Below the pieces are notes generated by a model, which saw nothing but the letters and a program-made list of their open reading frames with translations, ran no database searches and was not told the DNA's origin. From assembly GCF_003334405.1 (NCBI RefSeq), contig NZ_QOWM01000004.1: a stretch of 64,000 bases of DNA; one strand, given 5' to 3'. Each line of letters opens with the position of its first letter. The stretch's first letter is position 1. This stretch comes from Escherichia coli. GTDB lineage: Bacteria; Pseudomonadota; Gammaproteobacteria; Enterobacterales; Enterobacteriaceae. Made by a program: the position numbers and the translations under genes. Below are positions 2,684 to 17,716 of this stretch, one piece after another.

Positions 2684-3649
2684 TTACAGCGTTTGTGGGC
2701 TCACTTGATGACGGCGGACATCCACCGGCATCCCGGAACGGACATCCATCACATGTTGCATCACTTCAGCGTCAGTTTGTGCTGCATCTTTAAATGATTG
2801 CATTGCGCTATTCAGCGTAATTGGCAGCAGCTGCGGATCGTCATCAATCTTCTCTGACAGCGGCTGATGTACTTCAACCAGACGCGCACCGTTTGGTTCG
2901 GCAGAGACTTTTATCGGAGTGTTGATGATATTCACTTTGGTGCCTGGGGTGACCTGGCTAAAGAGTGTTTTGATATCGTCATCCCGCAGACGAATACAGC
3001 CAGAACTTACCCGCATGCCAATGCCGAAATCGGCGTTCGTACCATGAAGCAAATAAACGCCGCCATAGGCCGCCAGACGAATCGCATGATGGCCCATTGG
3101 GTTATCCGGTCCAGCCGGCACTACCGCAGGCAACTCAATTCCCTGTGCTTTATAACGGGCGCGGATGTTTGCCGTTGGCGTCCAGGTTGGGTTTGCACGT
3201 TTGTCTGAAACGGTGGTCACCATTGTCGGTGTCAGCGTGTCACCACCTAACTGACCAATACCTATTGGATACACGGTTACCGAATTTTTACCCGGCGGGT
3301 AGTAATAGAGACGCAGCTCCGCAATGTTGATCACAATGCCTTCGCGCGGCGCATCTGGAAGTAGGGTTTGCAACGGGATCGTTAACACGCTGCCCGCGCG
3401 CGGTACGTAAGGATCAACGCCGGGGTTAGCCTGTAACAGAGCGAGAAAGCCGACGTTGTATTTTTTGGCGATGGCTTCCAGAGAACCACCGTCATTTTCC
3501 ACCACATGAAATTTGTTTTCGCCAACCAGACGACTGCCCGCTGGCGGCAGCGGCCAGGTGTTGGCTTTTGCCGGTAGCGCCAGCGCCACGGCAGCGGCGA
3601 ACGTAAAAAACGTTAGCCAGCGAGAAAAACGCGTTTTGATCATCACCAA
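2684..3649 (-). CDS. ldtC: L,D-transpeptidase LdtC (YcfS), LysM + YkuD domains
   Basis: ORF 2684..3649, 321 aa; signal peptide; catalytic motif ...HGTNADFGIGMRVSSGCIRL... Confidence 0.9.
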   Translation of the reverse strand: MVMIKTRFSRWLTFFTFAAAVALALPAKANTWPLPPAGSRLVGENKFHVVENDGGSLEAIAKKYNVGFLALLQANPGVDPYVPRAGSVLTIPLQTLLPDAPREGIVINIAELRLYYYPPGKNSVTVYPIGIGQLGGDTLTPTMVTTVSDKRANPTWTPTANIRARYKAQGIELPAVVPAGPDNPMGHHAIRLAAYGGVYLLHGTNADFGIGMRVSSGCIRLRDDDIKTLFSQVTPGTKVNIINTPIKVSAEPNGARLVEVHQPLSEKIDDDPQLLPITLNSAMQSFKDAAQTDAEVMQHVMDVRSGMPVDVRRHQVSPQTL

Positions 3650-12791: not shown

Positions 12792-13631
12792 ATGCTGTCG
12801 CGTCGGGGTCATCGGTTAAGTCGTTTTCGTAAAAATAAACGCCGCCTGCGCGAGCGTTTGCGTCAGCGTATTTTTTTCAGAGATAAAGTGGTGCCGGAAG
12901 CAATGGAAAAACCAAGAGTACTCGTACTGACAGGGGCAGGAATTTCTGCGGAATCAGGTATTCGTACCTTTCGCGCCGCAGATGGCCTGTGGGAAGAACA
13001 TCGGGTTGAAGATGTGGCAACGCCGGAAGGTTTCGATCGCGATCCTGAACTGGTGCAAGCGTTTTATAACGCCCGTCGTCGACAGCTGCAGCAGCCAGAA
13101 ATTCAGCCTAACGCCGCGCATCTTGCGCTGGCTAAACTGCAAGACGCCCTCGGCGATCGCTTTTTGCTGGTGACGCAGAATATCGACAACCTGCATGAAC
13201 GCGCAGGTAATACCAATGTGATTCATATGCATGGGGAACTGCTGAAAGTGCGTTGTTCACAAAGTGGTCAGGTTCTCGACTGGACAGGAGACGTTACCCC
13301 AGAAGATAAATGCCATTGTTGCCAGTTTCCGGCACCCTTGCGCCCGCACGTAGTGTGGTTTGGCGAAATGCCACTCGGCATGGATGAAATTTATATGGCG
13401 TTGTCGATGGCCGATATTTTCATTGCCATTGGCACATCCGGGCATGTTTATCCGGCGGCTGGGTTTGTTCACGAAGCGAAACTGCATGGCGCGCACACCG
13501 TGGAACTGAATCTTGAACCGAGTCAGGTTGGTAATGAATTTGCCGAGAAATATTACGGCCCGGCAAGCCAGGTGGTGCCTGAGTTTGTTGAAAAGTTGCT
13601 GAAGGGATTAAAAGCGGGAAGCATTGCCTGA
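12792..13631 (+). CDS. cobB: NAD-dependent protein deacylase CobB (sirtuin), long form with Arg-rich N-terminal extension
   Basis: ORF 12792..13631; sirtuin motifs GAGISAESG and [12 protein letters not shown]; internal MEKPRVLV start corresponds to the short isoform. Confidence 0.93.
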
Positions 13632-13637
13632 TGCACT

Positions 13638-13722
13638 ACGCTTATCAGGCCTGCAAGGGGACGCAATTAATTGAATTTGCGGGTTTTGTGGGCCGGATAA
13701 GGCGTTCGCGCCCCATCCGGCA
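13638..13722. repeat. REP (repetitive extragenic palindrome) elements between convergent cobB and ycfZ
   Basis: gccggataaggcgttcgcgccccatccggc and cttatcaggcctgcaag match the E. coli REP consensus. Confidence 0.6.
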
Positions 13723-13750
13723 TAATACACGCGCACTTTTCCGGCCTCTT

Positions 13751-14539
13751 TTATCGTTTACTCGTCAATAACAATGCGGCAATAAACGTACAGACACCAA
13801 TTAGCCCTGCCCAGAGTGGCGATATTCTGGTAATCGCAAAGCTATTATCGATATACAAACATAAAGCCTGATAACCCATATTGGCAATAGTCATCGCCAC
13901 TGCAAATTTTAACGCATAAATAAAACGAGTCGTGTAGTAAAAGATCCTGGAAAATAAGATAAACGTCGCAGCCCAGGCGATAAAACCTAATGTGTTGGTG
14001 CTGCCGGGGGGAGCATTTTCATGCTGTTGTCCTGGATGCGGATAATACGTTAGTGGCGGCGTCGATTGTTTTAATATCTGTGCTTGTAGAACAGCCAATG
14101 CATTATTGATTCCCTGATACCAGAGATCTGCATTTAAATAAGCCAGCGTGTGATTTTCTATCAGAAGGCCGAGATGTTTATCGTCCAGACCACTTTCAAC
14201 CTGGCCGTTGGTGATCATAATTAACCGTGGTTCGCGGGTAGTAAATAGTAACAGAACACTTCCTTTTACATCACTCAATGAAGATGACGCATGCGCCAGC
14301 ATCGCTTTACCATTTTGTCTGAGACTGGCTTCATTATTAATGTCGGGTAAAACCACAATAAACGGTGCAATTCCCGTTTGTTGGCGAAAAAGCTCGGCTT
14401 TATGCGCGATCTCTTCAGCATCTGGTACAGTACCGGTAACGTCCGTAAAAAGTGTCTTCATTATTGGAATTAATGGCTTGCTGGCTGCTGTCAGAGGCAG
14501 GAGTATCAGTAAACTGAGCAGTATAATGAATTTTTTCAT
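13751..14539 (-). CDS. ycfZ: TPM-domain inner-membrane protein YcfZ (262 aa), function unknown
   Basis: ORF 13751..14539; signal peptide plus C-terminal TM helices; start overlaps ymfA stop. Confidence 0.88.
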
Positions 14540-15006
14540 GGGCGGGACTTCCGTTTCCTGCGTGATTTTTTAGAGGAGGGCATACTTATTAATAAACCGA
14601 CGGCGATAAAAATAACGCCCATAATGCCGATAAACCCCCATTTAAAAAAATTAACCCACGGGTTATTTATCTCAGCCTTTTCAGGATGCCCGGGAGAATA
14701 ATAAACATTAACTTTATCGCCTTCGCTGTCTTCATAAAAATCGCTGCCGATACTCGAATTGAAAATTAGCGTGTAATCTGGCGTCGGTCGAAAGGCAACG
14801 ACGGGATACCACGAACCATCTTTACCCGTGCGATGAGAATGACTGGAGTGCCAGACGGTATCAACAATGACGCCTTCGGTATGAATCGCGTCTTTGCTAT
14901 AGGTGAACTGGTTATAAAAGACAACAACAGAAATGAGGATCAGTACCAGACCGATACCGAGGAATATACGAAAGAAAACTTTACTGTCCTGACTCATTAG
15001 CCACAT
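14536..15006 (-). CDS. ymfA: DUF3592 inner-membrane protein YmfA (about 153 aa)
   Basis: ORF 14536..15006; annotated start may be the internal ATG at 14997 (MSQDSKVFF). Confidence 0.85.
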
Positions 15007-15016
15007 CCTTGCTAAC

Positions 15017-15044
15017 TAAAAAACGGGCGGTAATACCACCGCCC
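15017..15044 (-). terminator. Rho-independent terminator downstream of potD (minus strand)
   Basis: Hairpin gggcggtaataccaccgccc with adjacent A-run on plus (T-run on minus). Confidence 0.6.
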
Positions 15045-15054
15045 GCTTGCTGAA

Positions 15055-16101
15055 TTAACGTCCTGCTTTCAGCTTCTGATAATACTCTTCATAAATGCTG
15101 CTGGCTGCGCCAACGTCATTCTGCCATTCGCCATTTTTAATGGTTTCAGCATCCGGGTAGAGTGTTTTATCGTTCGCCACTTCTGGACTTAACAGCTTAC
15201 GCGCCGCAAGGTTTGGCGTTGGATAACCGATAGTTTCAGCAACCTGTTTTGCCACATCCGGGCGCAGCAGGAAGTTGATCAATTTCAGCGCGCCTTCTTT
15301 GTTTTTGGCATTTGCCGGGATCGCCAGGCTGTCCATCCAGAAAATGCCGCCTTCTTTCGGCCACACCACGTCAATTGGCGTACCCGCCTGGCGTGCAACG
15401 AAAGCAGAACCGTTCCAGATCATGCCGAGGTTAACTTCGCCTTCCATGTACGGGTTCGCCGGGTTATCGGAGTTAAAGGCTGCCACGTTTGGCATCAGTT
15501 TTTTCAGCTCGTTATATGCAGCTTCAATCTCTTTCGGATCGGTGGTGTTACCGGAGTAGCCCAGCTTACGCAGCGCCATCTGGAACACTTCACGGGCATC
15601 GTCGGTCAACAGCAGGCTGCCTTTGTACTCTGGCTTCCACAGATCGGCCCAGCTGGTGACAGATTTCGGATCCACCGCATCACCGTTAACACCAATCGCC
15701 GTCGCACCCCAGATATACGGAATGGAGTAGTCGTTATTCGGGTCAAAAGGCTTGTTGAGCATGTCTGGATCGAGATTGCTGAAGTTTGTTAACTTCGACT
15801 TGTCGATCTTCTGGATCATCCCTTCTTTACGCATTTTATCAACGTAATAGGTTGAAGGAACCACCAGATCATAGGCACCGTCTTTGTATGTTTTCAGCTT
15901 GGCGTACATGGTTTCGTTCGACTCGTAAGTCGAATAGATAACCTTAATACCGGTTTCTTTGGTGAACTGTTCAAGCAGTCCTGGCGGCACGTACTCGGTC
16001 CAGTTGTAGAAATACAGCGTGTTGTTGTCATCGGCGTGAGCGGCGCTCATGCCCAGTGCCAGAGCACCCGCCGCGAGCAGGTGGCGTGACCATTTTTTCA
16101 T
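15055..16101 (-). CDS. potD: Spermidine/putrescine ABC transporter periplasmic binding protein PotD
   Basis: ORF 15055..16101, 348 aa, signal peptide; operon context potABCD. Confidence 0.95.
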   Translation of the reverse strand: MKKWSRHLLAAGALALGMSAAHADDNNTLYFYNWTEYVPPGLLEQFTKETGIKVIYSTYESNETMYAKLKTYKDGAYDLVVPSTYYVDKMRKEGMIQKIDKSKLTNFSNLDPDMLNKPFDPNNDYSIPYIWGATAIGVNGDAVDPKSVTSWADLWKPEYKGSLLLTDDAREVFQMALRKLGYSGNTTDPKEIEAAYNELKKLMPNVAAFNSDNPANPYMEGEVNLGMIWNGSAFVARQAGTPIDVVWPKEGGIFWMDSLAIPANAKNKEGALKLINFLLRPDVAKQVAETIGYPTPNLAARKLLSPEVANDKTLYPDAETIKNGEWQNDVGAASSIYEEYYQKLKAGR

Positions 16102-16892: not shown

Positions 16893-17716
16893 TCGAGTTC
16901 CACCTTCTTATTCAGCAAACGAGAAGCGCGCCAGTAAACCAGCAACATCAGGCCCATTACGATAGTCAGCGTAATGCTGGTAGCTGCACCAAACGGCCAG
17001 TCACGAATATTAAGGAACTGGACCTTGATGACGTTACCGATCAGCAGGTTTTTCGCACCGCCCATCAGGTCGGATACATAGAACAGGCCCATCGCTGGCA
17101 GCATCACCAGCAGACATCCGGCAATAATTCCCGGCATCGTCAGTGGAATAATGATACGGATAAAAGTCTGTAACTTGCTGGCACCGAGATCGCGCGCCGC
17201 CTCAAGCAACGGCTTATCCAGTTTTTCGATACTGGAGTACAGCGGCATCACCATAAACGGCAGCAGAATGTAAACCAGACCGATAATCACCGCACTGGGC
17301 GTGAACATGATACGGATTGGTGTGTCGATAACGCCCAGCCAGAGCAAAAACTCGTTGAGATAGCCTTTGGTGCTGAGGAAAATTTTCAGCCCGTAGATAC
17401 GAATTAATGAGTTGGTCCAGAACGGAACAATCAGCAGAAACAGCAGCAGCGGACGCACCTTGTGTGGCAACTTCGCCAGAAACCAGGCAAACGGGTAGCC
17501 CAGCACCAGGCAGGCGAGGGTGGCGATCAGCGCCATATTCAGCGAGTGCAATAGCACTTCAAAATAGAGCGGATCGAGCAGACGCGTGTAGTTATCCAGC
17601 GTAAAGACCATTTTGACAAAACTGGCGTCGTCGCGGGTCAAAAAGCTGGTGCCAATGATCATCAGGTTGGGCAGAAAGACAAACAACACAAGCCAACCGA
17701 CAATAGTGACAATCAC
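16889..17716 (-). CDS. potB: Spermidine/putrescine ABC transporter permease PotB (275 aa)
   Basis: ORF 16889..17746; likely GTG start giving (M)IVTIVGWLVLFVF. Confidence 0.92.
   Translation of the reverse strand: MIVTIVGWLVLFVFLPNLMIIGTSFLTRDDASFVKMVFTLDNYTRLLDPLYFEVLLHSLNMALIATLACLVLGYPFAWFLAKLPHKVRPLLLFLLIVPFWTNSLIRIYGLKIFLSTKGYLNEFLLWLGVIDTPIRIMFTPSAVIIGLVYILLPFMVMPLYSSIEKLDKPLLEAARDLGASKLQTFIRIIIPLTMPGIIAGCLLVMLPAMGLFYVSDLMGGAKNLLIGNVIKVQFLNIRDWPFGAATSITLTIVMGLMLLVYWRASRLLNKKVELE

Follow-up and report, generated by a model that had tools for sequence, protein, structure and literature searches.

What do ymfA and ycfZ, two overlapping genes for membrane proteins in Escherichia coli, contribute to the cell, and why are they kept side by side? 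The genes lie in a 64,000-nucleotide stretch of contig NZ_QOWM01000004.1 (assembly GCF_003334405.1; hereafter the window), in which nagK and cobB on the plus strand are followed by ycfZ, ymfA, potD, and potC on the minus strand; the sequence here is 100% identical to that of E. coli K-12 MG1655. The pair is already known insofar as the K-12 annotation names both genes and Pfam contains both domain families. Our analysis adds that they form a tiny family with a conserved overlap, that they evolve fast, that about 11% of E. coli genomes have lost them, and that ymfA exists as two old alleles. On balance, and with modest confidence, we favor a model in which YmfA and YcfZ form a stoichiometric two-protein complex of the inner membrane with periplasmic domains, expressed by read-through from potABCD and serving as a non-enzymatic TPM assembly or auxiliary module.

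Conservation of the overlap and of the gene pair

The ycfZ coding sequence (13751..14539, minus strand; 262 amino acids plus stop) is delimited by the list of open reading frames (ORFs), RefSeq, and a Pfam TPM_phosphatase match, and that of ymfA (14536..14997, minus strand; 153 amino acids plus stop) by the 462-nucleotide ymfA genes of RefSeq, the comparative assignment of its start, and a Pfam DUF3592 match. In MG1655, RefSeq labels the products "TPM domain-containing protein" and "DUF3592 domain-containing protein", respectively. As an earlier note on this DNA had described, the genes share the four nucleotides ATGA (14536..14539, minus strand), where the TGA stop codon of ymfA and the ATG of ycfZ form a putative translational coupling site. 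A Shine-Dalgarno-like GGAAG (14548..14552, minus strand) lies 8 nucleotides before the ycfZ ATG, within the 3' end of ymfA. Four-nucleotide ATGA overlaps are the commonest type of gene overlap; the one described here is meaningful because the (A/G)TGA sequence is found in all of 10 loci, from about seven lineages, while the surrounding DNA has a mean column identity of only about 65% and the proteins are 26-50% identical. The 10 loci comprise E. coli alleles, E. whittamii, Klebsiella michiganensis, K. spallanzanii, Entomohabitans, the locus L019 (labeled K. pneumoniae), and the metagenomic contigs L009 and L024; the count of 10 includes L009 after its TPM-gene start was re-called at position 3130, which restores a signal peptide. 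A purine-rich, Shine-Dalgarno-like element precedes the ycfZ start by 8-11 nucleotides in each of them. The earlier proposal that the two genes are co-expressed is thus strongly supported, as an overlap kept in every lineage found would be expected of translational coupling.

The upstream end of ymfA required a correction. The previously assigned start at 15006, which yields an ORF of 156 amino acids, adds three non-conserved codons, and the conserved ATG is at 14997. We place the start there because E. whittamii has a stop codon in the extended frame, E. albertii has its upstream ATG in a different frame, a Shine-Dalgarno sequence AAGGA (15006..15010, minus strand; invariant in 8 aligned loci) is spaced 8 nucleotides from the ATG at 14997, and the resulting length agrees with RefSeq.

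Conservation extends from the overlap to the pairing itself. In every lineage, the TPM gene is directly preceded by a DUF3592 gene, the partner being present wherever a homolog of ymfA or ycfZ occurs, and the pair is located immediately downstream of potD in all lineages except L009. This constancy of arrangement goes along with a rapid, parallel divergence of both proteins: identity to K-12 YmfA and YcfZ is 53% and 45% in Klebsiella, 51% and 43% in L009, and 32% and 28% in Entomohabitans, while PotD stays at 88-92% in the compared genomes. Overall, the rate of evolution of YmfA and YcfZ is about five times that of PotD and CobB. A frameshift has fused YmfA to YcfZ in a rare E. coli variant (P0013, 414 amino acids), and the join is compatible with the topology proposed below. 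A second E. coli product, P0071 (196 amino acids, 13 member sequences), is an in-frame chimera of YmfA residues 1 to about 100 (...VNVYYP) and the YcfZ linker (HPEQKHEN...), apparently generated by a deletion between similar YYP(P/H)..HPE motifs present in both proteins.

How widely is the pair distributed? A YcfZ family profile searched against 1.84 billion cluster representatives retrieved 48 proteins at E-values up to 0.001, mostly fragments. Full-length relatives are limited to a handful of lineages, and the next matches are YgcG-type TPM proteins (E-values of 1e-4 to 1e-6). Scanning 100,044 species with one genome each yielded seven loci, from E. coli, E. whittamii, E. albertii, Escherichia sp., K. 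spallanzanii, and Entomohabitans teleogrylli; word-indexed searches added K. michiganensis, L019, and the two metagenomic contigs. The earlier note had looked to co-occurrence outside the Enterobacteriaceae as a gauge of the pairing. That comparison does not apply, since no homologs were found there by sequence; within the family, the partner is always present. No curated NCBIfam family was found for either protein.

Mobile elements were considered as a source of the pair. No plasmid carries it, the plasmid matches being partial ymfA sequences in very large, probably mislabeled E. coli replicons, and we therefore rejected the idea that the L009 copy, which is not syntenic, came from a plasmid or another mobile element. 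A phage origin and membership in a known defense system were likewise rejected, with no match to PHROGs (E-values up to 0.01) or PADLOC (E-values up to 0.1). Two GenBank "phage" records containing ymfA-ycfZ, including L030 (ON470619.1), represent a prophage, integrated near potC, whose assembly also took in the host DNA between potC and lolC. In some strains a prophage integrase lies directly beyond potC (e.g., E. coli UC4224, L006 6309-7256), and similarity of prophage-bearing strains to K-12 falls to noise past window position 16923 or thereabouts.

Predicted architecture of YmfA and YcfZ

AlphaFold2 (AF2) models of both proteins, built from small family alignments, together with RefSeq and Pfam bear out the gene names, domain assignments, and topologies given earlier. 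YmfA matches Pfam DUF3592 (PF12158) over residues 43-115 (E=1.7e-6, 29.1 bits, model positions 1-81 of 84). This is a weak match, and many divergent ymfA alleles have no entry in the precomputed Pfam column. The AF2 model (mean predicted local distance difference test score [pLDDT] of 76.8) consists of a helix at residues 2-36, five strands between residues 38 and 110, and a second helix at residues 113-138, an arrangement that fits DUF3592 as a beta-rich domain between N- and C-terminal transmembrane (TM) helices. The first hydrophobic TM helix (about residues 8-33; 14899..14976, minus strand) is among the more variable parts between alleles. The DUF3592 core (residues 38-110; 14668..14886, minus strand) forms a five-stranded beta domain (strands 38-51, 61-72, 75-80, 95-101, and 104-110), in which loop 49-60 is the most variable segment, with 45% identity among Escherichia alleles, and residues 61-112 constitute a highly conserved core. 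The second TM helix is followed by a polybasic, disordered C-terminal tail with low pLDDT (together 14539..14661, minus strand). By the positive-inside rule, both termini would be cytoplasmic and the beta domain periplasmic. The best Foldseek match in the PDB is KCNMB4, a beta subunit of the BK channel (E=7.7e-4); the remaining matches are weak and OB-like or DUF2500-like.

YcfZ matches Pfam TPM_phosphatase (PF04536) over residues 41-152 (E=2.1e-6, 28.2 bits, model positions 13-123 of 125), and its AF2 model (mean pLDDT of 80.2) starts with a hydrophobic helix, continues with an alpha/beta domain (residues 31-155), and ends in three helices. The N-terminus (14480..14539, minus strand) has the features of a signal peptide, namely MKK, a hydrophobic core, and an A-x-S motif, with low pLDDT at residues 15-22, and is probably cleaved. 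The alpha/beta domain (14075..14449, minus strand; pLDDT 82-93), identified as a TPM domain by Foldseek, would then reside in the periplasm, connected by a proline-rich linker (residues 156-182) to a three-helix membrane anchor (helices 183-199, 205-230, and 241-260; linker and anchor at 13760..14074, minus strand) that would leave the C-terminus in the cytoplasm. The residues most conserved in the family cluster in the second and third TM helices (M216, Y223, Q224, L242, W243, and F252). By comparison, TM1 is a hypervariable patch of about 100 bp (13923-14022), with 71% nucleotide identity and saturated synonymous divergence.

The nine best Foldseek matches of YcfZ in the PDB are all TPM structures, each with a probability of 1.0. 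Apart from the 404-residue Psb32 entry (8c7i), target-normalized TM-scores are 0.56-0.79, with single-domain entries at 0.65-0.79. The structural neighbors include 7tbr, TLP18.3 (3ptj), BA41 (5anp), PG_0361 (2kw7), Psb32, and BA42, and, as a weaker match, the TPM subunit of the mycobacterial III2-IV2 supercomplex. Compared with PDB sequences, the family profile detects 7tbr (E=0.0018) and, less strongly, 5anp (E=0.018).

Could YcfZ be a periplasmic phosphatase or nucleotidase, similar to TLP18.3 and BA41, with YmfA as its partner or regulator? The name of the Pfam family and the fold match to these two proteins would point in this direction, as would the N-terminal FTDxTG motif of YcfZ, which resembles the canonical TPM motif of the YgcG-type matches. 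However, the central motif of the YgcG-type proteins, DRKxRIEVGxGLEG, is replaced in YcfZ and variable within its family, and recent analyses question whether TPM domains have phosphatase activity in the first place; we therefore consider an enzymatic function very unlikely. The same literature describes TPM domains as acting in a chaperone-like fashion in the assembly of membrane complexes. Based on the fold, this literature, and the loss of the central motif, the TPM domain of YcfZ is, by analogy, most likely a non-enzymatic assembly or auxiliary module. The suggestion that TPM proteins are often envelope-stress or repair factors is no more than an analogy at the level of the family; the literature favors an assembly chaperone, and nothing in our analysis ties this pair to stress.

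Transcription and boundaries of the locus

The pair begins 57 nucleotides downstream of the potD stop codon (15055-15057), on the same strand. Between them lies a hairpin (15018..15048, minus strand) with a 12-bp GC-rich stem (15048-15021), a 4-nucleotide loop, and a run of six T residues (15023-18). Its predicted folding energy is -28.8 kcal/mol (z=-4.3), a value reached by none of 200 shuffled sequences. Escherichia species retain the hairpin, E. albertii with a compensatory change in the stem, and L024 has a different GC hairpin followed by a T-run at the equivalent position. It is the intrinsic terminator of potD and not a feature of ymfA: the hairpin noted earlier about 12 nucleotides upstream of ymfA is real, but its T-run ends 20 nucleotides before the true start.

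Between this terminator and ymfA, no sigma70-like promoter was found at 9 of 12 matches; relaxing the threshold to 8 of 12 returned a single weak promoter-like site, located upstream of the terminator. Any ymfA transcript must therefore cross the terminator, and judging from the sequence, ymfA-ycfZ is most likely expressed as a low-level read-through extension of the potABCD transcript. The spacer between potD and ymfA contains little besides the terminator in Escherichia (57 nucleotides, 14998-15054), whereas it measures 267 nucleotides in K. michiganensis (L001 5734-6000), 149 in L019, and 124 in Entomohabitans. Since their spacers are longer, these lineages may use a dedicated promoter.

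The position of the pair raises the possibility that it serves spermidine/putrescine uptake by PotABCD, for instance in PotBC assembly or in polyamine sensing. In Escherichia, Klebsiella, L019, L024, and Entomohabitans, the genes share the strand of potD and directly follow it, they appear to depend on transcription past the potD terminator, and TPM proteins are auxiliary factors of membrane complexes. Against such a function, the terminator separating potD from the pair is strong and conserved, the homologs occupy just seven loci among the 100,044 species, so that most pot-carrying genomes lack the pair, some 11% of E. coli genomes keep potD without it, and the L009 pair is not located beside pot genes. 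Vertical inheritance alone can explain the synteny, and we regard a role in polyamine transport as improbable.

At the opposite end, palindromic elements of the repetitive extragenic palindrome/bacterial interspersed mosaic element (REP/BIME) type (13631..13750, no strand assigned) form inverted repeats in the spacer where cobB and ycfZ converge with their 3' ends and likely mark the 3' boundary of the ymfA-ycfZ transcript. The sole Rfam signal is a sub-threshold match to the REP-derived naRNA4 at 13691-13728, in the same spacer. Only REP elements separate ycfZ from cobB in E. coli. Klebsiella has one gene of 105 amino acids without a Pfam match at this place (L001 7311-7628), Entomohabitans has two, of 117 and 103 amino acids (L010 6728-7081 and 7552-7863), and L019 has aldehyde dehydrogenase and AMP-binding genes. 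The cobB 3' end itself (13610-13631) is unusual in K-12, where one base is missing from GGATTA(T)AAAGC and the usual TAA stop codon is lost, giving a protein of 279 amino acids that ends in ...LKAGSIA, compared with 273 amino acids and ...LLKGL in most E. coli.

Loss and allelic variation in E. coli

Among 5,426 complete E. coli genomes, 4,850 carry the pair and 576 (about 11%) do not, whereas essentially every genome has potD and cobB; at least 80% of the pair is kept in one place in 4,828. The pair-less genomes that we inspected have one common junction, in which a 1.29-kb deletion leaves approximately the first 13 codons of ymfA abutting the REP elements by cobB. In these genomes, the absence of the pair is thus a loss and not an ancestral state. 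In addition, insertion sequences (ISs) of the IS1 (IS1A/IS1B), IS3-family, and IS621 types interrupt ymfA or ycfZ in multiple unrelated E. coli genomes, so the locus seems to tolerate or attract such insertions, and many truncated YmfA and YcfZ products are on record. In E. coli JSMCR1 (L005 3001-3436), a strain-specific deletion has removed ymfA and most of ycfZ and potD; what remains of ycfZ, its last 55 codons, is fused to potD at codon 90.

Are ymfA and ycfZ, then, decaying relics whose selected function is gone in E. coli and which are heading to loss under relaxed constraint? The deletions, IS insertions, frameshift fusions, and truncated products would fit, as would a pangenome study in which ymfA, present in 359 of 524 genomes, was flagged as a family remodeled through changes of frame. 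The ratio of nonsynonymous to synonymous substitution rates (omega) is also several-fold above that of the neighboring genes. Nevertheless, whole-gene omega is 0.13-0.39 across comparisons, well under 1 in every case, and drops to 0.03 in the YmfA core (residues 61-112, between the two E. coli alleles), for which the synonymous divergence (dS) is 1.21 (both are Nei-Gojobori estimates, as are those below). Intact ORFs, the overlap, and the Shine-Dalgarno element are preserved as far as Entomohabitans, the great majority of E. coli genomes keep most of the pair, and relaxed constraint cannot give rise to high dS. Decay thus strikes us as quite unlikely.

The high dS reflects a deep allelic split. 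In 68% of the genomes with the pair, identity to K-12 across it is only 90-95%, while flanking genes reach at least 95% in nearly all. ymfA is dimorphic: about 3,371 genomes carry type 1, the K-12 allele, type 2 is found in about 1,470, and intermediate sequences are almost absent. The two types share 77% nucleotide identity (dS about 0.9, omega about 0.18). The ycfZ alleles differ less (89-91% identity, dS 0.27-0.38, omega 0.13-0.19), and nagK, cobB, potD, and potC least (97-99% identity, dS about 0.03-0.15, omega at most 0.05). At silent sites, the divergence between the ymfA allele classes matches that between genes of E. coli and Salmonella. The allele nearest to type 2 is that of E. albertii (86% amino-acid identity). 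The divergent block starts just past the potD terminator and extends to the vicinity of the ymfA/ycfZ junction. Both types are under purifying selection; omega exceeds 1 in no region, loop 49-60 having a value of 0.46. When ymfA and ycfZ alleles are considered jointly, haplotypes 1A, 2A, and 1B are common and the fourth combination occurs in about nine genomes, a near-absence that can be explained by a simple clonal history.

Such a polymorphism invites the idea that the pair is a conflict-driven module, exposed to or acting against phages, colicins, or contact-dependent inhibition (CDI) toxins, for example as an inner-membrane protein that these use for entry or as an exclusion function, with old alleles and presence/absence variants maintained by frequency-dependent selection. 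It would account for the clean dimorphism of ymfA at a dS of about 0.9 next to flanking genes at about 0.1, for the proximity of type 2 to the E. albertii allele, for the concentration of variability in the predicted periplasmic loop 49-60, for a deletion allele in about 11% of genomes, and for the rapid divergence between genera; in addition, one ycfZ mutation has been reported among phage-resistant avian pathogenic E. coli (APEC) isolates. Yet omega stays below 1 even in the loop, PADLOC and PHROGs returned no match, and the "phage" records are a prophage plus host DNA. The genes occupy a fixed syntenic position between housekeeping genes, with no defense island or mobile element, the three-haplotype pattern fits clonal history, and the phage-resistance mutation is a single, unvalidated case. 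We consider this explanation unlikely. A related proposal, to which we likewise assign a low probability, is that a genus-level orphan envelope module is held as an ancient balanced polymorphism, its periplasm-exposed loop and its helices being used by, or guarding against, an antagonist; it derives from the two ymfA classes, the ycfZ TM1 patch, and the null allele, and, if true, would make the pair a new inner-membrane susceptibility determinant.

A model for the YmfA-YcfZ pair

In conjunction, the invariant stop/start overlap, the parallel divergence of the two proteins, the purifying selection on them, and their matching periplasm-facing topologies make a two-protein complex the most economical explanation, and we propose the following model. 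YmfA would form a helical hairpin that keeps both termini and the polybasic tail in the cytoplasm and presents its DUF3592 beta domain of about 75 residues to the periplasm. YcfZ, exported by means of its signal peptide, would place its TPM domain on the same side of the membrane and be held there by the three-helix anchor with its conserved polar residues. The ATGA overlap would tie translation of YcfZ to that of YmfA, yielding a fixed ratio of the two proteins, with read-through of the potD terminator providing a low-level supply. By analogy with other TPM proteins, the TPM domain most likely serves a membrane-linked partner as a non-enzymatic assembly or auxiliary module, and not as a phosphatase. 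The module is accessory, that is, dispensable, fast-evolving, and frequently lost, as its narrow distribution, its roughly five-fold faster evolution, and its frequent deletion indicate.

Several observations weigh against this model. Three of the four combinations of ymfA and ycfZ alleles are common, and since the allele types combine this freely, their differences are not tightly co-adapted. An association with the other domain is not a general property of DUF3592 or TPM proteins: the nearest generic TPM proteins (two neighborhoods) have no DUF3592 gene beside them, and the neighbor of one distant DUF3592 gene is unrelated. We therefore rejected a general DUF3592-TPM association and regard the pairing as specific to the small ymfA-ycfZ family. 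Both Pfam matches are weak, with E-values of about 1e-6. The interaction of YmfA with YcfZ is deduced from the genes and their predicted products, a family of too few sequences for co-variation, and the scaffold role of the TPM domain is an analogy. Finally, read-through is deduced from the missing recognizable promoter, and the terminator that would have to be crossed looks strong.

What is the relevance of these findings? As the earlier note had stated, neither gene has an assigned function, and our literature searches on both found nothing functional. Queries for ymfA/ycfZ, DUF3592, and b1121/b1122 returned only list mentions in screens, namely first-round ASKA candidates for D-alanine export, an indole microarray, a placental screen by CRISPR interference (CRISPRi), gene lists from amoeba grazing, and an old label as "homologous to virulence factor". 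The population and comparative facts, chiefly the deep dimorphism of ymfA, are mildly interesting and do not reveal the function. They do bear on how the genes should be approached. An obligate, probably translationally coupled pair calls for both genes to be studied, deleted, and expressed jointly, and plasmid or knockout designs that ignore the probable read-through from potD may mislead. Confinement to a few genera and the accelerated evolution argue for an accessory, niche-specific role and not for a core envelope function, and the natural type 1, type 2, and null alleles within E. coli permit a direct comparison.

Comparison with known systems

The only distant sequence relatives of YcfZ that we found are the YgcG-type proteins (COG1512; P0166 and P0168-P0170, E-values of 1e-4 to 1e-6), which share with it a signal peptide, an extracytoplasmic TPM domain, and a membrane anchor; some RefSeq records call ycfZ "YgcG family protein". 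Unlike these four YgcG-type proteins, which end in the glycine-rich sequence GGGGASG(G/S/R)W, YcfZ ends directly after TM3 without such a tail, and it has a conserved three-helix anchor where YgcG-type proteins have one or few helices plus low-complexity sequence. The partners differ as well: YcfZ is paired with a DUF3592 protein, whereas YgcG-type proteins often occur with LemA, and the two YgcG-type neighborhoods that we inspected contain no DUF3592 gene. YcfZ is thus best described as an atypical relative of the YgcG-type membrane TPM proteins.

A similar arrangement exists in Bacillus subtilis, where the membrane-anchored TPM protein YdjH is encoded beside YdjG, a small membrane protein with an extracytoplasmic domain. 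A part in the assembly of a membrane-linked complex has been proposed for this PspA/YdjI-associated pair. In contrast, no pspA or band-7 gene lies near ymfA-ycfZ, and the phylum differs. YdjG contains zinc ribbons and an NTF2-like domain in place of the DUF3592 domain of YmfA, and no sequence relationship between the two systems was found beyond the TPM fold.

For YmfA, other DUF3592 membrane proteins offer a parallel in architecture, two TM helices around a small beta domain; an example is mycobacterial ML2271, predicted to be a cofactor of the mannosyltransferase MptB and thus possibly a small accessory subunit. The likeness is one of architecture: ML2271 is essential and widely conserved in mycobacteria, its role is itself a prediction, and YmfA is dispensable. 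KCNMB4, an auxiliary subunit with two TM helices, cytoplasmic termini, and an extracellular domain, resembles YmfA in topology only.

YcfZ has the same TPM fold as Psb32/TLP18.3, which act in photosystem II assembly and repair, as the TPM subunit found in the III2-IV2 respiratory supercomplex of mycobacteria, and as CcoZ of Campylobacter jejuni. In these proteins, the TPM domain lies on the extracytoplasmic side of an energy-transducing membrane and has an auxiliary or assembly function within a larger complex. YcfZ differs from this group in its sequence (8-19% identity), its dispensability, and its restriction to few enterobacterial genera. In terms of function, YdjG-YdjH, Psb32/TLP18.3, and the TPM subunits of respiratory complexes are the closest analogies to the YmfA-YcfZ pair.

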